Source: Gemmatimonadales bacterium (GTDB lineage: Bacteria > Gemmatimonadota > Gemmatimonadetes > Gemmatimonadales > GWC2-71-9). Taken from it: DNA of 64,000 nucleotides. This document shows positions 4,024-16,918 of the stretch, piece after piece. The DNA is taken from NCBI GenBank assembly GCA_035456525.1, contig DATICZ010000224.1:4362-68361 (forward strand), read 5' to 3'. The stretch's first letter is position 1. Each line of letters starts with the position of its first letter. A program made the translations under genes and the position numbers. Below the pieces are notes generated by a model. That model was not told the origin of the DNA, made no database searches, and was given only the letters and a program-made list of their open reading frames with translations.

Positions 4024-4218
4024 TCAATCAGAGCAATCGCCCAGAGGATAGATGAAGCCGCAGTTGGCGCACGGATTCTTGCAGCCCCACGGCCTGGGAC
4101 GCACCTCCGCGCCGCACCGCAGACAGGTGGGCCGCGGGCGACCCCTAGGCGATGGGGACAGCGCCGGAGAGGAAGGGATTGGAGCGGCGCTCGGCGCCGA
4201 TGGTGGTCTGTGGTCCAT
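4024..4218 (-). CDS. Small Zn-ribbon-like peptide (CxxC...CxxC); start uncertain
   Basis: The C-terminal TCLRCGAEVRPRPWGCKNPCANCGFIYPLGDCSD carries two CxxC pairs. The stop lies 1 nt before the ferredoxin GTG. The only canonical starts (ATG 4218 or 4242) lie inside the 3' end of the MBL gene. Confidence 0.4.
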   Translation of the reverse strand: MDHRPPSAPSAAPIPSSPALSPSPRGRPRPTCLRCGAEVRPRPWGCKNPCANCGFIYPLGDCSD

Positions 4219-4783
4219 GCCCGCTGTACACGATGGTCGCATCGGGCAGAACGAGCAACTCCCGCTCGATGCTCCCGATCAGCGTCCCGAAGTCACCGCC
4301 GGGAAGGTCGGTGCGCCCGATGGAGCCCTGGAACAGCACGTCGCCGCTGAATACGACACCCTCACCCACCAGCGCCACGCTCCCGGGCGAATGGCCGGGC
4401 GTGTGCCGCACGCTGAAGCTGAGCCGGCCGACCCGCGCAACGTCGCCGTGTGACCAGAACGCGTCGGGAGGCGGGGGTTGCTCGGCCTCGAGGCCGAATG
4501 CCACCGCCTGCTGCGACACGCGATCATACAGGGGCCAGTCGGCCGCGTGCAGTCACACCGGAGCTCCGGTGGCAGCGCGCACCCGCGCGACTCCCATGAC
4601 GTGATCCAGATGCGCGTGCGTGACCCAGATCCCCACGGGCCGCACCGCCTCCCGCTCGATCTTGTGCAGGATCAGCCCCGCCTCTTCGCCGGGGTCCACG
4701 ACGGCGCACTCGGCCGACGCCTCGTCGATCACCAGGTAGCAGTTCTCGGCGAACACGCCGTTGGGGATCGCGATCACCTTCAC
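4145..4783 (-). CDS. MBL-fold metallo-hydrolase (GloB/YcbL-like) interrupted by an in-frame TGA at 4553-4555 (pseudogene, sequencing error or recoding)
   Basis: Track ORFs 4553..4783 and 4145..4519 share one frame. THAHLDH (HxHxDH) lies upstream of the TGA; HTPGHSPGS, GDVLF and SGHG lie downstream. The GTG start overlaps the trxB stop (GTGA). Confidence 0.75.
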
Positions 4784-5763
4784 GTGACGATCGCTCCGGC
4801 GGATGCGGACGGCCTGCCCTGCTCCCGCAGCTGCGCCAGGTACTTCTCCACCGCGATTGCCGCCGTCGTGGCATCTCCGACCGCGGTCGTGACCTGCCGC
4901 GTCAGCTGACTGCGGACGTCGCCGGCCGCGAACAACCCCGGGATCGAGGTCATCATGCGCTCGTCGGTAAGGAGGTACCCGCCGGCGTCATGGTTGACGT
5001 GGCCCTCCACGATTCCCGTATTCGGCTTGAACCCGATGAAGACGAACACGCCGCCCACCCTGAGCTGGCTGCGGGCCCCGGTCACCGTGTCCTCGAGCTC
5101 CAGATGGTCGGTGCCGCGCTCGGTTCCGGCGATCTCCACGACCCGCTTGTTCCAGACCGCTTCGATCTTGGGATTCGCGAAGGCCCGCTCCTGCAGGATC
5201 TTCGACGCGCGGAACCGGTCGCGGCGATGCACGATGTACACCTTCGACGCGTAGCGCGTGAGGTAGTCCGCCTCTTCGACCGCCGCGTCGCCGCCGCCCA
5301 CCACCGCCAGCACCTCACCCTTGAAGAAGGCGCCGTCGCACACGGCACAGTAGGACACCCCTTTGCCGGCGTACTCGCGCTCCCCCGGCACGCCGAGCTT
5401 CACCGGCGTGCCACCGGCCGTGAGAATCACGGCGGGGGCGCGGTAGTGCCGCTCGCGCGCCGTGGTCACATCGAACCACCCGTCCGGGGCCCGCCGCACC
5501 TTCTCCACGGTGTCGGTGACGATCTCCGCGCCGAACTTCTTGGCGTGGTCCGTGAACTTCTGGGCCAGGTCCCACCCCTTGACGCTCTCGAACCCGATGT
5601 AGTCTTCCACGAGATCGGTGTTCAGGAGCTCACCGCCGGGGGCACCCCGCTCGATGGTCAGGGCCTTGAGCATGCCCCGTCCGGCGTACAGTGCGGCGCA
5701 CAGCCCTGCCGGACCGGCCCCCACGATGATCACGTCGTAACTCTGCTGCCCGTTCTCAGGCAT
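4780..5763 (-). CDS. trxB: Thioredoxin-disulfide reductase
   Basis: GAGPAG FAD loop, redox-active CAVCDG and GGGDAAVEEA NADPH loop. Start moved to MPENGQQSYDVIIVGAGPAG (ATG 5761-5763). Confidence 0.9.
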   Translation of the reverse strand: MPENGQQSYDVIIVGAGPAGLCAALYAGRGMLKALTIERGAPGGELLNTDLVEDYIGFESVKGWDLAQKFTDHAKKFGAEIVTDTVEKVRRAPDGWFDVTTARERHYRAPAVILTAGGTPVKLGVPGEREYAGKGVSYCAVCDGAFFKGEVLAVVGGGDAAVEEADYLTRYASKVYIVHRRDRFRASKILQERAFANPKIEAVWNKRVVEIAGTERGTDHLELEDTVTGARSQLRVGGVFVFIGFKPNTGIVEGHVNHDAGGYLLTDERMMTSIPGLFAAGDVRSQLTRQVTTAVGDATTAAIAVEKYLAQLREQGRPSASAGAIVT

Positions 5764-6115
5764 CGCTTCTAAAGTCCAATCGCGGGGGATCTCCCTCCCC
5801 CGCCAAGGCACGCGCCAGAACGGCGCGAAACCGCAACGTATCGAACTCCACCGCGGGGTGCTGTGGCCCGGACAGCTTCTCGAGGGCCGCGGCCCCGACG
5901 ACGACGGTACCGTGCCGGTTGCCGCTTCGCTGGTGCAGCAGGGCTGCGGCCGCCTGGATCAACCCCTGCCAGACCCGTCGCTCACTGTCGTCTATTATAG
6001 AACGCCAGACGGTTTCCAGGGCTTCGTGGGCGAGCCAATATTCCCCATCGTTGAACAGCGTCTGCGCCTGTTCCAGTTGGCGCCGGCGGGCCTGCGGATC
6101 CAGCAACGAGGCCAT
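5756..6115 (-). CDS. DUF309 domain protein
   Basis: LFNDGEYWLAHEALETVWR...WQGLIQAAAALLH matches the DUF309 helical motif. Start taken at MASLLD. It overlaps the trxB start by 8 nt. Confidence 0.65.
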   Translation of the reverse strand: MASLLDPQARRRQLEQAQTLFNDGEYWLAHEALETVWRSIIDDSERRVWQGLIQAAAALLHQRSGNRHGTVVVGAAALEKLSGPQHPAVEFDTLRFRAVLARALAGEGDPPRLDFRSDA

Positions 6116-6128
6116 CAGCCGTGAGCCC

Positions 6129-6896
6129 TCAGCCGTCAGCGGGCGACGCCCCGATCCGCAACACATTCAGGGCCCCGTGGCAGGAACTGACCGTCCCAAC
6201 GAGCACGTGTGCGGTCTCCCGCTCAGCGGCGGCCTGCGCCACGATGCGCTCGCCCTCCAGCACCGCGTCCACGGCGAACGTCCCCACGCCGAACACGTGG
6301 TGGCGGCACACGAACAGGACGGGCCCGGTGATGGACGTGCCGCTCGCCCGCAGCCGTTCAGCGAGGGACCGCACCGCCACGGACATTTCCCACGACCGTG
6401 GCCCGCCGATCGCCGGGCAGGCGGCGGGCTCGATGCAGTGCGTCGGGCAGATCCACTCGGCGAAGGAGACGTAGCGCGTGTGGTCGGAGCCGGAACGATC
6501 GTACGGTGTCCCGAGCGAGTCCGGAACCGGGACGACGTCCACGGGGCGATCCACACACCGCGCCCGCGTGCGGCGCACCAGCCACTCGAACATGAGGTGC
6601 GACATGTGCGGCGAGGGGACGACGTAGTCGGGCGGATCCCCGGCCGCGGTGGGGCGCGCCGCCGCGAGGTGCCGGTCGAAGAACGCGTCCCACTCGCTGG
6701 CGACGAATCGCCGATCGGCCGACTCGGGGAGCTCGCGGCGCGCGCGGCAGTCCGGATCCCGATCCACGACGATGACCGTCCGAAACGCCGCTTTGCCGCG
6801 CTGCTTCGCCCTGGCGAGCTGGGTGGCGTAGAAGGTCCCGTAACAGCCGCCCCCCACGACTACGATGTCCCGCATCGCCGCGATCCCGTCGCTCAT
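6129..6896 (-). CDS. Hypothetical Rossmann-like protein with a Cys-rich motif
   Basis: The real gene is the C-terminal 255 codons of track ORF 6129..7355. N-terminal IVVVGGGCYGTFYA is a dinucleotide-binding-like loop. There is an internal CPTHCIEPAACP motif. The ATG overlaps the SDR stop (ATGA). Family not recognised. Confidence 0.6.
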   Translation of the reverse strand: MSDGIAAMRDIVVVGGGCYGTFYATQLARAKQRGKAAFRTVIVVDRDPDCRARRELPESADRRFVASEWDAFFDRHLAAARPTAAGDPPDYVVPSPHMSHLMFEWLVRRTRARCVDRPVDVVPVPDSLGTPYDRSGSDHTRYVSFAEWICPTHCIEPAACPAIGGPRSWEMSVAVRSLAERLRASGTSITGPVLFVCRHHVFGVGTFAVDAVLEGERIVAQAAAERETAHVLVGTVSSCHGALNVLRIGASPADG

Positions 6897-7621
6897 CGAA
6901 CCAGGCGACCCCCGTCCACCGGAAGCACCACTCCCGTGACGTAGTCGTTGTCGAGCAGGAACAGGACGGCCCGCACCACGTCCTCGGGGCTGCCGAGCCG
7001 GCGCAGCGGCGTGGTCGCGACGAGGTGGTCCCGCGCCTCGGCGGGCCAATCCTCGGGGGGAAGCACGGCCCCGGGCGCGACGGCGTTCACCGTCACCTCC
7101 GGGGCCAGCACGCGCGCGAGCCCGTGGGTCAGCATGACGACCCCCGCCTTGCTCACGTTCAGCGGGAGATACGCCGGCCACACCTCGAAGGCGGCGACGT
7201 CGGCGAGGTTGACGATCTTGCCGCGCACGCGCCGCAGGTGCGGTGCGGCTCCCTGGGCGGTGTACAGTGCCGCCGAGAGATTGAGCGCCAGCGCGTCGTT
7301 CCAGTCGTCCGGCGTGATCGCCGCGAATTCGCGCCGCACCATGACGCCCGCGCAATTGACGAGAACGTCGAGGCGGCCGAAGGTCTCGGCGACACGCCCG
7401 GGAAGCGCGCGCGCGGCCGCGGGATCACGCAGATCCGCCGCGAACCGCTCGCCGCGCCGCCCGGCCCCCCGTACGGCGCCGAGCGTCGCTTCCGCTCCAT
7501 CCGCGGACGCGTGGTGGTGAGCGGCGATGTCGTATCCCGCCCGGGCGAGCCCCGCGGCGATCGCGGCACCGAGGCGACGGCCGGCGCCAGTTACGAGCGC
7601 GACTCGCCCGGTGGGCTCCAC
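6893..7621 (-). CDS. SDR-family oxidoreductase (pteridine-reductase-like)
   Basis: VALVTGAGRRLG cofactor loop, NCAG, and IVNLAD...NVSKAG active-site region. Asp replaces the usual Ser, as in the PTR1-type triad (see findings). Confidence 0.8.
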   Translation of the reverse strand: MEPTGRVALVTGAGRRLGAAIAAGLARAGYDIAAHHHASADGAEATLGAVRGAGRRGERFAADLRDPAAARALPGRVAETFGRLDVLVNCAGVMVRREFAAITPDDWNDALALNLSAALYTAQGAAPHLRRVRGKIVNLADVAAFEVWPAYLPLNVSKAGVVMLTHGLARVLAPEVTVNAVAPGAVLPPEDWPAEARDHLVATTPLRRLGSPEDVVRAVLFLLDNDYVTGVVLPVDGGRLVR

Positions 7622-7624
7622 CGA

Positions 7625-8353
7625 TCAGTGCGACCCGGGGAGGAGAGGGAGAATCTGACCCGTCACCGCGCGGGCTTCGGTGGACGCCAGCCAGAGCACG
7701 GTGCGCACCACGTCGGCCATCTCCACCAGCTTCGCGTCCGGCCCCATGTCCTGCACGTTGGTGGACGTGCGGACCGCCTCCGGGGCGAGCGCGTTCACGC
7801 GGATGCCGCCTCCGTCGTCCCGCAGCTCGCGGGCGAGCGCGCGTGTCAGCGCGGCGACGCCCCCTTTCGCGGCCAGGTACGCGGCCAGATTGGGCTGGGG
7901 GTGCAGCACCGCAATGGAGGCGAAATTGATGATCGCCCCACCCCCGCGGCGGCGCAGCGACGGAACGGCGGCCTGACACACGCAGAAGACGGTGCGGAGA
8001 TTGATCGCGATTTCGCGCTCGAAGGCGGCGACGTCGATCCCTTCGAACGGCCCGTATGTGGTGAGTCCACCGGCGACGTTGACCACGATGTCAAGGCCGC
8101 CGAAGCGGGCCTCGGCGAGCCCCACGGCGGCACGTGCGGCGTGCGGCTCGGTCAGGTCCCCTGGAGCGGCGGCGGCCTCGATGCGGGCGGCGGCGAACTC
8201 CCGGACCCGTTCATCCAGGGACTCGGCCGAACGGTCGGCGAGGACGAGGCGGGCGCCCGCGGATCCGAAGCCTGCCGCCACCGCGTGGCCGATCTGACCG
8301 ACGCGCCCCACCCCGGTGACGAGCGCGACCCGGCCCGCAAACTCACCCGCCAC
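7625..8353 (-). CDS. SDR-family oxidoreductase
   Basis: VALVTGVGRVGQIG, NVAG, IINFASI and the canonical YLAAK (YxxxK). Confidence 0.8.
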   Translation of the reverse strand: MAGEFAGRVALVTGVGRVGQIGHAVAAGFGSAGARLVLADRSAESLDERVREFAAARIEAAAAPGDLTEPHAARAAVGLAEARFGGLDIVVNVAGGLTTYGPFEGIDVAAFEREIAINLRTVFCVCQAAVPSLRRRGGGAIINFASIAVLHPQPNLAAYLAAKGGVAALTRALARELRDDGGGIRVNALAPEAVRTSTNVQDMGPDAKLVEMADVVRTVLWLASTEARAVTGQILPLLPGSH

Positions 8354-8801
8354 GGCCGCCCGACCCCACCGCGGCGACTACCTCTTCCGGAGGCGGTGCG
8401 CCGCGCTGGGCGTACCGGATCGTACCGTCCCGCCCCACCACGTACACCGTGCGGGCGATCCCCGTCCCGTCGTCCTTGAGGGCGTGATACGCCCGCGCGA
8501 TGGACCGGTCGGGATCCGACAGCAGCGGGAAGTTGAATTTCATCTTCTCCACGTATTTCCGGTGACTGTCGAGGCTCGCGGGATTCACCCCCAACGGCTG
8601 GATCCCGGCGGCTTCGAACCTGCTCATCTCATCGCGCACGGCGGAGAGTTGGCGGTTTCACCCGGGCGTGTTGTTTCCCGGGTAGAACACCAGCGCCACG
8701 TGGGTGCGTCGCAGTAGTTCGGCCAGTCGGTACGCTTTCCCGTCCGACGCCTGCGCCTGGAAGTCCGGAGCTTTGCCGCCCACCGGTAGCACGTCGCTCA
8801 T
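8343..8801 (-). CDS. bcp: Bcp/PrxQ-type peroxiredoxin with TGA (8658-8660) at the peroxidatic-Cys codon (candidate selenoprotein, or pseudogene)
   Basis: Manual translation from ATG 8799-8801 gives MSDVLPVGGKAPDFQAQASDGKAYRLAELLRRTHVALVFYPGNNTPG-TGA-NRQLSAVRDEMSRFEAAG. This continues in frame into track ORF 8343..8639. The total is 152 codons, a typical Bcp length. Confidence 0.7.
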
Positions 8802-8817
8802 GGAGTGTGTCTCCCGT

Positions 8818-9654
8818 TCATCCGTACGCCTTCGCCTTGCGACACTCCAGCTCCTCCAGCCACTCCACCGGCACCTGCATCCCTCCCAACGGCGCGTGGG
8901 AGATCCCGGCGCTCGACTCCCCGTGCCAGTCCGATCCTCCGGAGATCACCAGATCGAGCTGGCGCGCCAGCTTCGTGAGCCGCCGTTCCACCCGCGGCGA
9001 GTGGCTCGGGTGGCGCACCTCGATACCGTCCAGCCCGTCTTGCTGGAACGCGCGCAGCTGCTCCGCGTGGCCGCGCTCCCCCATGTGCGCGGCGAGTACC
9101 AGCCCGCTTCCCGCGTGCACCAGGTCGGCCACCTCGCGCAGGGGCGGCAGCTCCTTTTCCACGAAGGCCGGTCGGCCGCGGCCGAGAAAGCGATCGAAGG
9201 CTTCTTCCAGACCATCCACCACGCCCGCGTCGATGAGCGCGCGAGCCACGTGGGGCCGTCCGACGGCGCCGCCGCCGGCCTGGAACGCCAGGTCCTCGAG
9301 ATCGATCTCGACGCCCAGCTTCTGCAGCTTCTCGATCATGCGGGTGCCACGCCGCTCCCGCGCCTCGCGCATTTGGGCGAGGAACTGGTCGAGCGCCGCG
9401 TCGCCTTCGGGCAGGAAGTACCCGAGCAGGTGCAGCTCGCCCCACGGGGCCTGCACGCTGAATTCGCACCCGGACACGATGCGCACCCCCAGCTCACGGC
9501 CGGCCGCCACGGCGGCCGGCATGCCGTCGAGCGTGTCGTGATCGGTGAGCGCCAAGGCGGACAACCCGACGGCAGCTGCCCGTTGTACCACGGCTTCGGG
9601 GCTCGTCTGGCCGTCCGAGGCGGTGGAATGACAATGCAGGTCAACGTGCGCCGT
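8818..9654 (-). CDS. PHP-domain phosphoesterase (TrpH/YciV-like); start codon unresolved
   Basis: The track ORF starts at GTG 9591, but the conserved PHP N-terminus VDLHCHSTASDGQTSPEAV is encoded in frame just upstream. The in-frame stop is at 9721-9723, with no ATG/GTG/TTG in between. ACG 9652-9654 is preceded by GGAGAG with a 5-nt spacer. Confidence 0.7.
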   Translation of the reverse strand, partial: TAHVDLHCHSTASDGQTSPEAVVQRAAAVGLSALALTDHDTLDGMPAAVAAGRELGVRIVSGCEFSVQAPWGELHLLGYFLPEGDAALDQFLAQMREARERRGTRMIEKLQKLGVEIDLEDLAFQAGGGAVGRPHVARALIDAGVVDGLEEAFDRFLGRGRPAFVEKELPPLREVADLVHAGSGLVLAAHMGERGHAEQLRAFQQDGLDGIEVRHPSHSPRVERRLTKLARQLDLVISGGSDWHGESSAGISHAPLGGMQVPVEWLEELECRKAKAYG

Positions 9655-9910
9655 AGGCGCTCTCCGGCGAGGTCCAGGCGGGTTGGGATTGGCGGAACAG
9701 CTCGAGCAGCGTCCGTTCGCTCAGCTCGCTCAGCGACGCGTCGGTGCGCCGTGCCCCGCTGGGGGAGTACCGTGTGAAGCGTCGCTTGCGCTCGGTACCG
9801 GTGCCGAGCTGGAACACCAAGCCGTACTGGTCCTGACCGTACACGGTGGGGTGGCCGGACGGGAACACCTCCCAGCGCTGTCCGTCCACGGTGAGTTCGC
9901 GGCGGGCCAT
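9641..9910 (-). CDS. Hypothetical small protein
   Basis: MARRELTVDGQRWEVFPSGHPTVYGQDQYGLVFQLGTG... The ATG lies 2 nt after the upstream stop, and codon usage is coding-like. Its TGA overlaps the PHP N-terminal codons. Confidence 0.5.
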   Translation of the reverse strand: MARRELTVDGQRWEVFPSGHPTVYGQDQYGLVFQLGTGTERKRRFTRYSPSGARRTDASLSELSERTLLELFRQSQPAWTSPESAYGAR

Positions 9911-9912
9911 GC

Positions 9913-10227
9913 TCAGGTCTCCGCCGGCGTCGCGAGGGAGACCTCGCTCCACAGTTCCCAGGCGTCGGGAGAGTAGGTGACGAGGCTCTGCAGCTTCTTC
10001 TCGAGCTTCGTTTCTTCTGGCAGGCGGGAGGCCTGCGCGCGATGGGACATCTCCGTCGGGCTCTCCGAGAACTCGATGAACAGGCGCGGGTCCTTGGCGT
10101 TGCGGAACACCCAGATGCGCTGCCCCCGGGCGTCGGCGAACTGGGCCAGCTCGCGCAGCGTCGCCAGATAGTCGAGCTCGTTGGCGGCGGGCACACGTAC
10201 CCGGGCCGCGGTGAGGACCTTCGCCAT
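9913..10227 (-). CDS. Hypothetical small protein
   Basis: 104-aa ORF (MAKVLTAARVRVPAANELDYLATLRELAQFADARGQRIWVFRN...). It starts 2 nt after the E2 stop. No family recognised. Confidence 0.5.
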   Translation of the reverse strand: MAKVLTAARVRVPAANELDYLATLRELAQFADARGQRIWVFRNAKDPRLFIEFSESPTEMSHRAQASRLPEETKLEKKLQSLVTYSPDAWELWSEVSLATPAET

Positions 10228-10229
10228 GG

Positions 10230-11591
10230 CTACATCTCCTGCTCGGGGAAGTCCTGCAGCGTGGCCTTCACGTCGGCCAGGAACTTGTCGGCGTCCGCGC
10301 CGTCCACCACGCGGTGGTCATAGGACATGGTCAGCATGCCCATCGTGCGGATGGCGATCGCGTCCGCGCCGTCCTGGGTCACGACCTTGGGGCGCTTCTC
10401 GATCGTGCCGACGCCGAGGATCGCGACCTGCGGCTGATTGATGATAGGGATGCCGGCATACGGTCCGAACCCGCCGGGATTGGTGATCGTGAACGTGCCG
10501 CGCTGGATTTCATCGGGCGAGAGCTTCTTGGTGCGCGCCCGCTCGCCCAGGTCGTTGATGGCACGCGCCAGGCCCAGCAGCGACAGCTCGTCGGCACGCT
10601 TGACGACGGGAACGATCAGCCCCCAATCGAGCGCCACCGCGATTCCGATGTTGACGTCCTGGCGGTAGATCGTGCTGTCACCCGAGACCGCGGCATTGAC
10701 GATCGGATGCTTGCGCAGGTTCGCCGCGCACGCCTTCGCGATGAACGCGAGGTAGGTGAGGTTCACTCCCCGCTCGGCATAAGCGGCCTTGAACTTCGCG
10801 CGCAGCTGCGCCACGCGCGTGTAGTCGATCTCGAAGAAACTGGCCACGTGCGCCGATACCCGGCGCGACATGATCATGTGATCCGCGGTGATCTTGCGGA
10901 TCTTCGACCACGGCTCGACGCGGTCGCCGGGCCAGGGCTCCGCCGCCGGATGCGCCACCTCCCCACCCGCGGGGAGCGGGGACCCTAAAGGACTCGGGCG
11001 GGGAGCGGTCGGCGTCGGTGCCGCGGGTGCGCGCTCGATGAAGCCGAGGATGTCCTGCTTGGTGACCCGTCCGGCGAACCCGGTCCCCGGAATCTGCGAG
11101 ATGTCGAGCTGGTGCTCGGTCGCGATCTTGCGGACCAGCGGCGTCGAACGGCGCCGCAGGCGCTCTTCGGCGGTCTCGAGACCGTCACCCTTTGGAAGGA
11201 CGGGGGACGGGGGACGAGGGACGGGCGGTGCGGCCGCGGCGACCACGGCCGGCGCGGCCGCGGGAGCCGGCGCCGCTTTGGGAGCAACTGGAGCCGTGGG
11301 GGCGGCAGGAGCGGCCGGAGCGGGCGCGGCCGCGGTGACCGACGCCCCTTGTTCCGTGTCCAGCACCGCCACGAGCGTTTGCACCGGAACCGTCTGGCCT
11401 TCCTGCACCTTGATCTCGACCAGCGTCCCCGCGGAGGGCGCCGGAATCTCGGCGTCCACCTTGTCGGTCGAGATCTCGAACAGCGGCTCGTCGCGCTTCA
11501 CGGTATCGCCGAGCTTCTTGAGCCACTTGCTGAGAGTCCCTTCGGCGATGGACTCTCCCATTTGGGGCATCAGCACATCGACTCTGGCCAT
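10230..11591 (-). CDS. 2-oxoacid dehydrogenase E2 (dihydrolipoamide acyltransferase)
   Basis: Lipoyl domain (EISTDKVDAEIPAP), Ala/Pro linker, E3/E1-binding segment and catalytic DHRVVDG. Start taken at MARVDVLMPQMGES. Confidence 0.9.
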   Translation of the reverse strand: MARVDVLMPQMGESIAEGTLSKWLKKLGDTVKRDEPLFEISTDKVDAEIPAPSAGTLVEIKVQEGQTVPVQTLVAVLDTEQGASVTAAAPAPAAPAAPTAPVAPKAAPAPAAAPAVVAAAAPPVPRPPSPVLPKGDGLETAEERLRRRSTPLVRKIATEHQLDISQIPGTGFAGRVTKQDILGFIERAPAAPTPTAPRPSPLGSPLPAGGEVAHPAAEPWPGDRVEPWSKIRKITADHMIMSRRVSAHVASFFEIDYTRVAQLRAKFKAAYAERGVNLTYLAFIAKACAANLRKHPIVNAAVSGDSTIYRQDVNIGIAVALDWGLIVPVVKRADELSLLGLARAINDLGERARTKKLSPDEIQRGTFTITNPGGFGPYAGIPIINQPQVAILGVGTIEKRPKVVTQDGADAIAIRTMGMLTMSYDHRVVDGADADKFLADVKATLQDFPEQEM

Positions 11592-11607
11592 GATTGCTCC
11601 AATCAAT

Positions 11608-11678
11608 CGCTATCGGCTATCGGCTATCAGCTATCGGTGTCGGCCGAGCTGCTAGCCGATAGCCGATAGCTGATAGCG
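11608..11678 (-). repeat. 71-nt near-perfect hairpin built from tandem heptamers (GCTATCG/GCTATCA) between E1beta and E2
   Basis: Base-by-base pairing of 11608-11637 with 11649-11678 gives about 25 Watson-Crick pairs plus 2 G-U pairs and 2 mismatches. The arms consist of CTATCGG CTATCGG CTATCAG CTATCGG and its complement. Confidence 0.85.
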
Positions 11679-11682
11679 CTTC

Positions 11683-12660
11683 TCAGTATTTCGCCAGCCA
11701 TCTCGCCGCGTTGACGATGTCGTCCGTCTGCGGCAGCACGAAATCCTCCAGCGTCGGCGCATAGGGCAGCGGTACGTCATGCGCCGTTACGCGCTTGATC
11801 GGGCCGTCGAGCCATTCGAACGCGCGCTCGTTGATGCGCGCGGTGATCTCGCCCGCCAGTCCGCCGGTCCGGGTATCCTCGTGGACGATCAGCACCTTTC
11901 CCGTCTTCTTCACCGTGGCGACGATCGCGTCGTCGTCGAGCGGCAGCAGCGTGCGCAGGTCCAGCACCTCGAGCGACACGCCGTCCGGTGCAAGCTGGTC
12001 GGCCGCCTCGAGCGCCTTCCAGACGGTCGCCCCGTAGGTGATCACCGACATGTCCTGCCCTTCCCGGGCGAGCCGCGCCTGGCCGATCGGGGTGAGTACT
12101 TCCTCGCCGTCCGGCAGCGTCTCCTTGATGCGGCGGTACAGCCACTTGTGCTCGAGAAAGAGGACGGGATCCTCGTCCCGGATCGATGCCTTGATGAGAC
12201 CCTTCGCGTCGCGCGCGGTCGCCGGGTAGACGATCTTCAGGCCGGGTGTGTGCAGGAACGCCGCTTCGGGATTCTGCGAATGGAACGGGCCGCCGCGCAC
12301 GTACCCGCCGCAGGGGCCGCGCACCACGATCGGCGTGGCGAGCCCGGCGCGATAGCGCGCGGTCGCCACGTAGTTCGTCAACATGTCGTAGGCGCACGAG
12401 ATGAAATCGATGAACTGCATCTCCGCGACCGGCCGCATCCCCATGTGCGCGGCCCCCGCTGCCGCCCCCACGATCGCGGCCTCCGAGATCGGGGTGTCGA
12501 TGACGCGCGCCTCCCCGAACTTCTTCTGGAACCCCTCGGTCACCTTGAATGCGCCGCCGTAGGCCCCGATGTCCTCGCCGAGCATGAACACGCGCTCGTC
12601 GCGCTCCATCTCCTCCCACAACCCCTGGCGCAGGGCTTCGAGGAACGTGACGTCGGCCAT
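11683..12660 (-). CDS. 2-oxoacid dehydrogenase E1 component, beta subunit
   Basis: Transketolase-like pyrimidine-binding and C-terminal domains (MADVTFLEALRQGLWEEMERDERVFMLGEDIG...). The start shares one base with the E1alpha stop (TGATG). Confidence 0.9.
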   Translation of the reverse strand: MADVTFLEALRQGLWEEMERDERVFMLGEDIGAYGGAFKVTEGFQKKFGEARVIDTPISEAAIVGAAAGAAHMGMRPVAEMQFIDFISCAYDMLTNYVATARYRAGLATPIVVRGPCGGYVRGGPFHSQNPEAAFLHTPGLKIVYPATARDAKGLIKASIRDEDPVLFLEHKWLYRRIKETLPDGEEVLTPIGQARLAREGQDMSVITYGATVWKALEAADQLAPDGVSLEVLDLRTLLPLDDDAIVATVKKTGKVLIVHEDTRTGGLAGEITARINERAFEWLDGPIKRVTAHDVPLPYAPTLEDFVLPQTDDIVNAARWLAKY

Positions 12661-13721
12661 CACAGACTCCGGAACCACAGCCGCTCGGCGGCCGCCGGTT
12701 GCGCGTAGACGCCGGGCAGCGCCGATTCGGGCGCCGGCAGCGGCTCGTCGACACAGGCGTCGGTCGCCTGATCGATCTCGTCCTTCGCCGCCTGGTCGAT
12801 CTCGGCCAACTCGCCCGCTTCGGCCCAGTCGTTGTCCAGCAGCTGCTTCACGAACCGGTCTACGGGGTCGTTCTCCCGCGCCCAGCGCTCGATCTCGTCC
12901 TTCGGCTGATAGGATTGGTCATCGTGCTCCGCGTGTCCCTTGCGGCGGTAGGTCTTCACCTCGATAAAATGGACTCCCTTGCCGCGACGCGCGCGCTCCA
13001 CCGCATATTTCGTCGCCGCGTACACGGCGAGCACGTCGTTGCCGTCCACCGTGACCGCATGAATCCCGTAGCCCTTGGCCCTGTCGGCGAGGTGCTGCAC
13101 CGCGAACTGCTTCTCGGGCGGCGTGGAATAGGCCCAGTGGTTGTACTCCCCGATCACCACGAGGGGGCAGCGCTGCACGGCGGCGAAGTTCAGTCCCTCG
13201 TGAAACGCCCCCGTCGACGTCGCGCCGTCACCCACGAATACCAGACCGACGCGCGGCTCGCCGCGCATCTTGAAGGTGAGGGTGATCCCGGCCATCACGG
13301 GCACCATGTCCCCCAGATGCGAGATCTGTCCCAGATACCCTTTCTCGAGATCGTTGAAATGGACGTTCAGCTCGCGTCCGCGGGTGGGGCTTTCCGCCTT
13401 GGCCATGTACTGGCGCAGGATCTCGATCGGCTTGGCGCCCATCACGAGCAGGGCGCCGAGGTTGCGGATCAGAGGCGAGAGGACGTCGCGATGACGGCCG
13501 CGCTCCAGCGCGAAGGCCGCCGCCACCGACTCCCCCTCCTGCCCCAGGGAGCGGAACAGCCCCCCGATCACCTTGCTTTGGCGGTACAGCGCGACCAGCC
13601 GCTCTTCCAGCACCCTGGTGAGGCGCAGATAGCGGTACACCTCGAGCAGCTGGAGCCGCTCGAGGTCGGCCGGGATCGCGGGCGTGTCCGACCGGGTGTC
13701 GGGTACGGAGTGGGGAGGCAT
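12660..13721 (-). CDS. 2-oxoacid dehydrogenase E1 component, alpha subunit (TPP-dependent)
   Basis: TPP-binding region VFVGDGATSTGAFHEGLNFAA...NHWAYSTP. 353-aa ORF. Confidence 0.9.
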   Translation of the reverse strand: MPPHSVPDTRSDTPAIPADLERLQLLEVYRYLRLTRVLEERLVALYRQSKVIGGLFRSLGQEGESVAAAFALERGRHRDVLSPLIRNLGALLVMGAKPIEILRQYMAKAESPTRGRELNVHFNDLEKGYLGQISHLGDMVPVMAGITLTFKMRGEPRVGLVFVGDGATSTGAFHEGLNFAAVQRCPLVVIGEYNHWAYSTPPEKQFAVQHLADRAKGYGIHAVTVDGNDVLAVYAATKYAVERARRGKGVHFIEVKTYRRKGHAEHDDQSYQPKDEIERWARENDPVDRFVKQLLDNDWAEAGELAEIDQAAKDEIDQATDACVDEPLPAPESALPGVYAQPAAAERLWFRSL

Positions 13722-14350: not shown

Positions 14351-16918
14351 CTAGGAGACCCACGCCGGAGTGTAGCGCCGCAGGCGCAGGCTGTTCAAGA
14401 CCACGCTGAGACTGGACCACGCCATGGCCGCGCTGGCGATCACCGGGGAGAGCAGCAGGCCGGTCAACGGATAGAGCGCCCCCGCGGCGATCGGGATGCC
14501 TAACACGTTGTAGAGAAATGCCCAGAACAGATTCTGTCTGATGGTCCCCAGGGTCCGGCGCGACAGCTCGACCGCGGTGACCACGCCACGCAGATCGCCG
14601 CGGATGAGGGTGACGTCGGACGCTTCCATGGCGATTTCCGTCCCGGTGCCGATCGCGATCCCCACGTCGGCCTGGGCCAGGGCCGGCGCATCGTTGATGC
14701 CATCGCCGACCATGGCGACGACGACGCCCCGCCCCTGTTCCTGCTTCACGAGATCGGCCTTCTGGGAGGGCAGCACCTCGGCGCTGACATCGTCAATGCC
14801 GACCTCCGCCGCGACCACGAGGGCCGCACGCCGCGCGTCGCCGGAAACCATGCGCACTTCCAAGCCGAGGCTCCGCAGGCGCGCCACGGCATCCTTCGCG
14901 GTCGGTTTGACCGGATCCGAGATACCGATCACCGCGTGCACGGTGTTGTTCACGACGACGATCACCGGCGTCCGCCCCTGATCCGCGAGGCGGTCGGCGT
15001 CCTGGGCCAGACTGCCCAGCTCGAGGCTGCGCTCGCGCGCGTGCCGCGCCGAGACGACCTCGACGATGCGCCGGTCCACCGTCCCGCGGACCCCGCGGCC
15101 CTCCATGGCGGCGAATTTCTCGACGGGCAGCAACAATACCGTCCGTTCCTGCGCCGCCCGGAGGATCGACTGGGCGATCGGGTGCTCGGACCGCTGCTCG
15201 ACCGAGGCGGCCCAGCGCAGCACTTCGGCCGCCGAGACTGCGGTCCCGTCGGGTTTGCGGGCGGTCACGATGTGCGTGACGGACGGCTGGCCCTCGGTGA
15301 TCGTCCCCGTCTTGTCGAGCAGCACCGTGCGGACCTTGGCAAGGCGCTCGAGCGCCTCGCCGCCGCGGATCAGGACGCCCTGCTCGGCGGCGCGCCCGGT
15401 GCCGACGAGGATCGCGGTGGGCGTGGCGAGCCCGAGGGCGCACGGACAGGCGATGATCAGCACCGTGACGAGCGCGATGGTGGAGAAGAGCAACGCGGGG
15501 CGCGGCCCCAGATCGAACCAGAGCACGAACGCGGCGATGGCGATGGCGATCACGACAGGGACGAAGACGCCGGCGACCCGGTCGGCCAGGGTCTGAATCG
15601 GGGCCTTGGATGCCTGCGCCTCCTCCACCAGCCGGACGATCTGGCCAAGGGCCGTATCCTTGCCGACGCGAGTGGCGCTGAACGTGAAGCTCCCAGTGGT
15701 GTTCAGCGTGCCCCCGATCACCTCGTCTCCGGGGTGCTTCGACACCGGCATCGGCTCGCCGGTGAGCATCGACTCGTCGAGCGACGACGTGCCTTCGACG
15801 ATCACGCCGTCGGCCGGGATCCGCTCGCCGGGCTTCACCACCACACGATCGCCGACCGCGACGGCGGCCACCGGGATGTCCTGCACGGCGCCGTCGCGCT
15901 CGACATGCGCGAGCGCCGGAGCGAGCGCGGCGAGACGCCGGATCGCGGCGGATGTGCGACCCTTGGCGCGGGCCTCGAGCAATCGTCCCAGGAGAATGAG
16001 CGCGATGATGGCGCAGACCGCTTCGTAGTAGACGTCGGCGGGCAAACCGGCGCGGGTGAACACACCCGGCACGAGCGTCGCGACCACCGAGTAGAGAAAC
16101 GCGGCGCCGGTGCCGACGGCGATCAGTGTGTTCATGTCGGCGGTCCGGTGCCGGAACCCGCTCCAGGCACCCCGGTAGAACCGCCGCCCCGACCAGAGCA
16201 GCACCGGGAGCGTGAGTCCGAGGAGCAGCAGCTTGAGGAGCGTCGGATTCCCCGGCAATCCCGCGCCAGCCTCCCCTCCGACGGCGCTGCGCAATCGCAT
16301 CGCCAGGGGCATGAGCAGGCGACCCAGCAGGTCCACCCGGCCGATGCCGGCGGCGGCATCGTGTTCCGCCATCAACAGCATGGCCCCGAGCATCGTGAGC
16401 AGCGCCACGCTGGCGGCGAGCGCGAACTGCCAGGTGAGCGTCCGGATCTCCCGGCTGCGCGCCAGCCGTTCGCGCTCCAGCGGGTCCTCGGCCGCGATCG
16501 GCTCGGCGACCCGGAATCCCGCGCTGCGGACCGCGTCCTCCAGCTGGCCGGCCGTGGTGACGCCCGGGACGTAGACGACGGTCACGCTCTCGGTCGCCTG
16601 GTTGGCGGCGGCGCGGATCACGCCGGGCACGGCGGCCAGCTCGCGCTCGAGCGCGGCGGTGCTGGGCGCGTAGTGCAGGTCGGGGATGCCGAACGTGACG
16701 CTCGCCTGGCCGCACTGGTACCCGGCGTCGCGCACCGCCTTGGCCAGCTGCCCCACGCCGATCGCCGCGTCGTCGTAGTCCACCGCCGCCTTCGCGGTGG
16801 CGTAGTTGACGCTCGCCGAGGTCACGCCGCGCGCGGCGCCCAGCGCCTGCTGCACCGTCTGGGCGCAGGCGGCGCAGCTCATGCCTTCGATCGGCAGGAT
16901 GATCCGCTGTCTAGCCAT
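14351..16918 (-). CDS. copA: Copper-translocating P1B-type ATPase
   Basis: N-terminal HMA domain with GMSCAAC, a second HMA-like domain lacking Cys, the CPC motif ([12 protein letters not shown]), DKTGTIT, and [10 protein letters not shown]. Confidence 0.92.

Follow-up and report, generated by a model that had tools for sequence, protein, structure and literature searches.

A peroxiredoxin gene with an in-frame TGA codon

On the minus strand of a 64,000-nucleotide stretch of DNA from a Gemmatimonadales bacterium (contig DATICZ010000224.1 of assembly GCA_035456525.1; this whole stretch is called the window below), we found a complete gene for a peroxiredoxin of the Bcp/PrxQ type whose reading frame contains one internal TGA codon. 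The frame starts with ATG at 8801..8799, comprises 152 sense codons and ends with TGA at 8345..8343; the internal TGA, codon 48 at 8660..8658, is the only one within it. An initial annotation of this DNA had read a peptide from the ATG at 8799-8801, with 152 codons and the TGA at 8658-8660, and had proposed that the TGA occupies the catalytic Cys codon of a Bcp protein and is a candidate codon for selenocysteine (Sec). That translation was reproduced exactly. The coordinates of the gene, of a conserved element that follows the TGA and of the neighboring genes are collected in Table 1.

Table 1. Features of the peroxiredoxin locus, with positions in the window, and a second TGA-containing gene in a related genome (locus L022)
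Feature	Position	Strand	Basis
Bcp/PrxQ-type peroxiredoxin coding sequence, complete, 152 residues, with one UGA proposed to be read through (Sec48)	8343..8801	minus	Open reading frame (ORF) translation, Pfam
UGA codon 48, at the peroxidatic Cys position of P41-x3-T45-x2-U48, very probably read as Sec	8658..8660	minus	Conserved TGA, Sec/Cys pair
GGGAG, Shine-Dalgarno-like, 9 nucleotides 5' of the ATG	8811..8815	minus	Read from the sequence
Near-invariant 30-nucleotide block, codons 49-58 (NRQLSAVRDE); proposed bacterial Sec insertion sequence (SECIS) made up of spacer and hairpin	8628..8657	minus	Alignment, codon entropy
Predicted hairpin: 8648-8646 with 8630-8628, 2x2 internal loop, 8643-8641 with 8635-8633, apical loop CGUGC at 8640..8636	8628..8648	minus	RNAfold, RNAalifold
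PHP-domain phosphoesterase, co-directional 5' neighbor; stop codon 16 nucleotides before the Bcp ATG	8818..9591	minus	Syntenic in 79/80 loci
Short-chain dehydrogenase (SDR), co-directional 3' neighbor; start overlaps the Bcp stop by ORF coordinates	7625..8353	minus	Syntenic in 78/80 loci
Thioredoxin-disulfide reductase TrxB, about 2.5 kb downstream of Bcp	4780..5811	minus	TIGR01292, 364 bits (cut-off 343)
AhpD-like candidate	L022:14956-15513, TGA at 15217		Motif C-R-Y-TGA-L-N-S-H (CxxU)

For domain searches with this protein, Cys was substituted at codon 48. The Pfam family AhpC-TSA (PF00578) spans the TGA, covering residues 7-130 (E=1.1e-34; 119.4 bits, cut-off 26). The PxxxTxxC-type motif is complete, with P41, T45 and the TGA-encoded residue U48, and Arg117 is invariant in an alignment of 26 homologous sequences. 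Full-length homologues carry TPGCNRQLS at the column of codon 48, and the best relatives in the Protein Data Bank are BCPs whose TPGC aligns with TPG-TGA, so that the placement of the TGA at the catalytic Cys codon is upheld. The initial annotation had also remarked on Ser in place of the usual resolving Cys, and this is correct: the position +5 from codon 48 is Ser53, and the resolving Cys of atypical 2-Cys BCPs is absent. There is no Cys anywhere in the protein, and most relatives with Cys at the aligned position (Cys-forms) likewise have just that single Cys. The enzyme is thus predicted to be a BCP of the 1-Cys mechanistic type, for which a missing resolving Cys is no bar to family membership.

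Every specific NCBIfam model scored on the protein, selenoprotein-specific models included, falls below its cut-off. The equivalog models concerned are NF006960 for E. coli Bcp (70.4 versus 140 bits), NF053650 for Deinococcus PrxQ (61.9 versus 260 bits) and NF040737 for PrxU (46.7 versus 270 bits). A 2026 review gives PxxxTxxU as the motif of Sec-peroxiredoxins (PMC13188914).

Conservation of the TGA codon and integrity of the frame

A scan of GTDB with one genome per species returned 328 relatives, of which the best 80 were analysed; all are metagenome-assembled genomes (MAGs) of Gemmatimonadales/Gemmatimonadota, with 68-94% identity. TGA is present at exactly codon 48 in all 80 of these species representatives, of which 78 start the gene with ATG and two with GTG. 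Soil-metagenome contigs were gathered from Joint Genome Institute (JGI) metagenomes by a scan seeded with Cys-form proteins. Despite this choice of query, codon 48 is TGA in 74 of the 80 contigs, with TGC in three and TGT in one. In addition, two independent read-level Logan assemblies that encode an identical C-terminal protein both have TGA, and one of them carries a synonymous change in the Gly codon that precedes it. In total there are 154 TGA-bearing relatives, derived from different species, samples and assemblers. Chance is excluded as the origin of the TGA because codon 48 is TGA in all 154, at the same position, which bears out the earlier argument that a random nonsense mutation at precisely this codon is improbable.

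The coding sequence is constrained in the same manner on both sides of the TGA. In the 80 species, entropy at codon positions 1, 2 and 3 is 0.51, 0.42 and 1.25 bit for codons 2-47, and 0.46, 0.36 and 1.14 bit for codons 59-143, while mean pairwise amino-acid identity is 73.4% on the 5' side and 73.8% on the 3' side. No further in-frame stop was seen in any of these genes. The matching entropy patterns and identities argue for equal purifying selection at the protein level upstream and downstream of the TGA.

A pseudogene, or a sequencing or assembly error that turned TGC or TGT into TGA in the window, therefore has a negligible probability, given the same TGA in 154 independent sequences and purifying selection on either side of it. 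A one-off TGA does exist elsewhere in the window, in an MBL-fold gene (4555..4553). The initial annotation had named mutation or a base-call error as its alternative, and this is excluded by the 80 species, the 74 contigs and the two read assemblies. Global reassignment of TGA was considered as well and can be dismissed: in the window (69% G+C) TGA is the predominant stop and terminates 32 of the 44 genes supported by third-position G+C content, the Bcp gene among them.

Cys-containing orthologues and truncated gene calls

The best 120 matches of a protein search fall into two classes. Full-length matches (147-158 residues) carry Cys at the aligned column in 69 of 71 cases. The short matches, which include the most similar sequences (72-95% identity), begin just 3' of the TGA; 47 of these 49 are gene calls of 91-100 residues from internal codons after the TGA. 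All 49 were called as fragments, and none of the best 120 entries carries a U. Short calls that start after the TGA are the signature of gene callers halted by an in-frame TGA.

Taken literally, the same calls would fit a true stop at codon 48, with a 47-residue N-terminal peptide and/or a C-terminal redoxin fragment of 94-98 residues from GTG 8639 or ATG 8627, and an ATG or GTG is indeed present at the internal position. We consider this very improbable. Across the 80 species the reading frame of the 47 upstream codons is preserved, with synonymous variation and the full PxxxTxx motif, and the internal ATG lacks conservation, since codon 59 encodes Met, Ile or Leu. Moreover, we know of no function for a fragment without the peroxidatic residue and without the initial beta-strands of the thioredoxin fold.

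Cys-forms of the Gemmatimonadaceae type (P0032, P0033, P0034 and P0041) have TGC at codon 48 and lie in the same gene order as the TGA-containing forms. TGA in close relatives together with TGC in more distant syntenic orthologues constitutes a classical Sec/Cys pair. The proposal of a candidate Sec is therefore supported both by the TGA in 80/80 species and 74/80 contigs and by the TGC of the syntenic orthologues. The comparison is closest for the Gemmatimonadaceae proteins P0033 and P0034 (loci L167 and L171), which share about 60-64% identity with the window's Bcp, the same length, the active-site peptide TPG-C/U-NRQLSAVRD and the gene order. They differ in having TGC for TGA and in codons 49-57, which are synonymously free (AAT, CGG, CAG, CTT, TCG, GTA/GTT, CGT, GAC) and show no frozen RNA element.

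In a neighbor-joining tree of 140 distinct TGA-forms and 74 Cys-forms, 45 Cys-forms fall outside the smallest clade that holds all TGA-forms and 29 fall inside it. This suggests one change from Cys to Sec followed by several reversions, although a neighbor-joining tree of 143 residues is weak evidence. Cys-form P0001 (L083/L084) reads TGC AAC CGG CAA CTC TCC GCC GCG CGC GAT GAG at codons 48-58. It retains nearly the whole of the block found in TGA-forms, with the GU of the loop lost through a Val-to-Ala change, and appears to have reverted recently from Sec to Cys, leaving a fossil SECIS.

A frozen coding-region element 3' of the TGA codon

The ten codons that follow the TGA, AAC CGC CAA CTC TCC GCC GTG CGC GAY GAG, are near-invariant across the window and all 80 GTDB loci. 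The codons that flank this block vary freely at synonymous sites. When only codons that are conserved and degenerate are compared, codons 49-58 have a mean codon entropy of 0.16 bit and 70 other codons one of 1.11 bit (Mann-Whitney p=1.1e-6). For example, Gln51 is CAA in 76 of 80 sequences, whereas Gln68 is CAG in 68 of 77; Leu52 is CTC in 80 of 80, and other invariant Leu positions use three to six codons. In eight distinct Cys-form lineages whose peptide is identical or almost so, eight of the nine synonymous sites vary, with the codons AAT, CGG, CAG, CTG/CTT, TCG, GTA/GTT, CGG/CGT and GAC. As the block is frozen in the TGA-forms and variable in the Cys-forms, the constraint is tied to the TGA. 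This suppression of synonymous change supports a putative functional RNA element at codons 49-58. One TGA-form, and one only, is altered inside the block: L090 (metagenome contig Ga0184632_10046464) has CGC for CTC at codon 52 (Leu52Arg), a change on the 5' side of the predicted stem that may reflect an error or a copy in decay.

The initial annotation had described a hairpin at 8647..8627, 11 nucleotides after the UGA. A hairpin is present, and the spacer from the UGA to this hairpin as first described is 10 nucleotides rather than 11. RNAfold and RNAalifold favor a register one base off. In the favored register the hairpin occupies nucleotides 13-33 from the U of UGA and consists of CUC paired with GAG, a 2x2 internal loop, and CGC paired with GCG, capped by the loop CGUGC in which G22 and U23 (same numbering) lie. 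Its predicted energy is -6.5 kcal/mol for 24 nucleotides, -7.8 for 37 and -14.5 for 49 (window sequence). Among the TGA-forms, all four synonymous sites in the predicted stems and both of those in the loop are invariant, and the only variable synonymous sites (nucleotides 9, 12 and 30) are all unpaired in the model. The location of these sites is good, though indirect, support for the hairpin, the exact SECIS fold being predicted.

The published criteria for a bacterial SECIS (bSECIS) call for a loop of 3-9 nucleotides, a G in the first two loop positions, a spacing of 16-37 nucleotides, a minimum free energy (MFE) of at most -7.5 kcal/mol and an upper stem of at least 4 base pairs (PMC13188914). 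The Bcp hairpin has a loop of five nucleotides whose second and third are G and U, a spacing of 17 nucleotides between UGA and loop and an MFE of -7.8 kcal/mol, all of which fit. Thus it resembles the bSECISearch consensus (PMC13188914) in its place directly 3' of the UGA, its loop, its GU, its spacing and its MFE. It differs from that consensus in an upper stem of 3 base pairs before an internal loop, and in a spacer and loop whose sequence is invariant across the whole order, an invariance that arises because overlap with the invariant peptide leaves no room for compensatory change.

Evidence for and against Sec decoding

Several observations weigh against the reading of codon 48 as Sec. Searches with tblastn and E. 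coli protein queries found no match to selA, selB or selD in the window and 80 loci (1.18 Mb). ARAGORN called no tRNA in the window, thus no tRNA-Sec, and no Rfam family matched there. The only tRNA-SeC call in the loci (L071:13192-13268; 77 nucleotides, anticodon TCA) is probably a false positive; it lies inside an ORF of 670 codons and matches neither the tRNA nor the tRNA-Sec family of Rfam, at the gathering threshold or at E values up to 10. The predicted hairpin itself shows no significant gain in stability over shuffled sequence (z of -1.1 to -1.6), and with 3+3 base pairs around an internal loop it misses the upper stem of at least 4 base pairs if bulges are disallowed. Finally, covariation is absent, all six pairs being invariant in 77 distinct sequences. 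Related results are that a 76-nucleotide fold gives a z of +1.0, and that a search of PLSDB with SelA for Gemmatimonadota replicons gave nothing relevant among the matches listed.

Each refuting condition of the initial annotation that was examined came out in favor of Sec: sister genomes have TGA and not TGC or TGT, and nucleotide-level constraint follows the TGA in TGA-forms only. The hairpin does not covary. Compensatory change is impossible here without altering the active-site helix, because the synonymous sites of the stem (C15, C18, C27 and G33) pair with bases fixed by the amino-acid sequence.

We also screened the 80 loci for other conserved in-frame TGA codons. The screen yielded a second candidate, an AhpD-like gene of the carboxymuconolactone-decarboxylase (CMD) family about 5 kb downstream of Bcp, with a conserved TGA in at least 15 loci. 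Besides L022 (Table 1), these are L023, L026, L031, L040, L043, L044, L046, L048, L054, L055, L064, L067, L072 and L073; the window has no copy. Beyond the Bcp and AhpD-like genes the screen gave only off-frame shadows and junctions of adjacent genes. The AhpD-like protein matches the AhpD core domain above its cut-off and two NCBIfam models named '(seleno)protein' below theirs, and its orthologue in Cys-type genomes reads C-E-Y-C (L167:14127-14663). Its TGA is followed 13 nucleotides later by a 7-base-pair hairpin in which three pairs show compensatory double changes. In the alignment 99% of cells are paired, versus 32-58% for slid controls, and the covariation score was reached by none of 500 shuffles. 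Some of the changes alter the protein (Arg to Gly) yet keep the pair. As judged from the alignment, this hairpin is a textbook bacterial SECIS. A TGA with a covarying hairpin in turn makes Sec decoding in these genomes likely.

Insertion of a standard amino acid at UGA48 would be the other way to obtain a full-length protein, either Cys by a tRNA with a UCA anticodon or Trp, Arg or Gly by near-cognate read-through, with the downstream element acting as a read-through stimulator. UCA-anticodon tRNAs of this kind have been described for deliberate recoding of UGA to Cys. The failure to find Sec machinery in the window or in the 1.18 Mb around orthologues would agree with such recoding, as would a downstream element that is unusually invariant in sequence and weakly structured. 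We nevertheless regard it as improbable: codon 48 corresponds to the catalytic Cys in all Cys-form homologues, a typical site for Sec; a second gene of the lineage has UGA at a cysteine of CxxC followed by a classical covarying hairpin; PxxxTxxU Sec-peroxiredoxins are established; and the purifying selection on the gene is hard to square with Trp, Arg or Gly at the peroxidatic position, any of which would abolish activity. On balance, the in-frame TGA of Bcp is very probably a Sec codon at the catalytic site of a one-Sec Bcp/PrxQ peroxiredoxin, an identification of the inserted residue that we infer from sequence.

A gene for a protein of the PLP-dependent decarboxylase family (494 residues) is present in Cys-type genomes at L167:5-1489 and L171:1-1471 (minus strand) and has a weak match to Pfam SepSecS. 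This protein is most likely a fold-type-I relative and not Sec machinery.

Proposed mechanism

We propose that SelB together with Sec-tRNA(Sec), recruited by the short hairpin with the loop CGUGC, would insert Sec at UGA48. The recruiting hairpin would begin 9-10 nucleotides after the UGA, within the codons of the active-site helix NRQLSAVRDE. Sec48 would replace the peroxidatic Cys and form the active site together with Thr45 and Arg117, and its selenolate would attack the peroxide to give a selenenic acid. An external thiol would then reduce the selenenic acid, because a protein devoid of Cys offers no resolving residue. The most plausible donor is thioredoxin recycled by the TrxB of the gene cluster, a reductant suggested by context only.

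Genomic context

The Bcp gene is part of a co-directional cluster (4145-13721, minus strand) conserved in Gemmatimonadota of both the Sec type and the Cys type. The cluster comprises, in order, 2-oxoacid dehydrogenase E1a, E1b and E2, two small ORFs, the PHP phosphoesterase, Bcp, two SDRs, a protein with an AF_1314_C domain, TrxB and an MBL hydrolase. The small ORFs (9913-10227 and 9641-9952) have no family matches. The overlap of the SDR start with the Bcp stop makes an operon likely. TrxB is kept downstream of Bcp in 66 loci, and in Cys-type genomes as well.

The MBL-fold hydrolase gene (4145-4783, minus strand) has an in-frame TGA at codon 77 (4555..4553) that is unique to the window. This codon is TGG (Trp) in the nearest relatives, L001 and L003, and encodes Tyr, His, Phe, Ile or Cys in others. 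A nonsense mutation or a base-call error is the probable origin of this TGA, and in the window the gene may have become a pseudogene.

Relation to known peroxiredoxins

Among Sec-peroxiredoxins, PrxU of Eubacterium acidaminophilum is a studied example. That such proteins are established, as the initial annotation had stated, is borne out by the literature, where they form a known family (PMC5029168, PMC13188914); a 2016 census counted the 'Prx' family in 78 organisms (PMC5029168). The Gemmatimonadales protein shares with these proteins and PrxU the PF00578 superfamily, the proposed Sec at the peroxidatic position of PxxxTxxU, a UGA followed by an in-frame hairpin in the coding region and the existence of Cys-containing homologues. 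In contrast to PrxU, it is a Cys-free protein of 152 residues and of BCP/PrxQ type, from Gemmatimonadales, and not a PrxU equivalog.

E. coli Bcp, the thioredoxin-dependent thiol peroxidase of model NF006960, and the BCPs of structures 3DRN, 5ENU and 2CX3 have the same fold family, a TPGC-type active site and the conserved Arg. By analogy with E. coli Bcp, thioredoxin-dependent reduction may be presumed here as well. The present protein differs in scoring below the equivalog cut-off, in Ser for the resolving Cys at +5 and, on our interpretation, in Sec for Cys.

Our literature searches found no report of Sec use in Gemmatimonadota or Gemmatimonas, and the supplements of the 2016 census contain no Gemmatimonadetes entry (PMC5029168). 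The finding is a new lineage for a known kind of selenoprotein; both the combination of UGA with a coding-region hairpin and the protein family are established, and no new principle is involved.

Implications for selenium use in Gemmatimonadales

Gemmatimonadales are among the abundant bacteria of soil. Together, the Bcp and AhpD-like genes indicate Sec decoding in this order. We give roughly even credence to a wider view, in which Gemmatimonadales are obligate selenium users with a Sec-containing Bcp in nearly every species, a Sec-containing AhpD-like protein in many and one conserved cluster with TrxB, and in which the same codons specify the active-site helix and carry the Bcp SECIS, RNA and protein constraint together freezing 30 nucleotides across the order. 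If this is true, a phylum-level lineage would be added to the map of selenium use, and the supply of selenium in soil would bear on the oxidative-stress defense of a dominant group of soil bacteria.

A SECIS that overlaps an invariant peptide becomes frozen in sequence and is therefore invisible to covariation tests. A widespread antioxidant enzyme that bears an active site is systematically mis-annotated in hundreds of soil MAGs. Moreover, a BCP with one proposed Sec and no Cys, accompanied by syntenic Cys orthologues and by apparent Sec-to-Cys reversions, would be useful for learning what Sec buys a peroxiredoxin.

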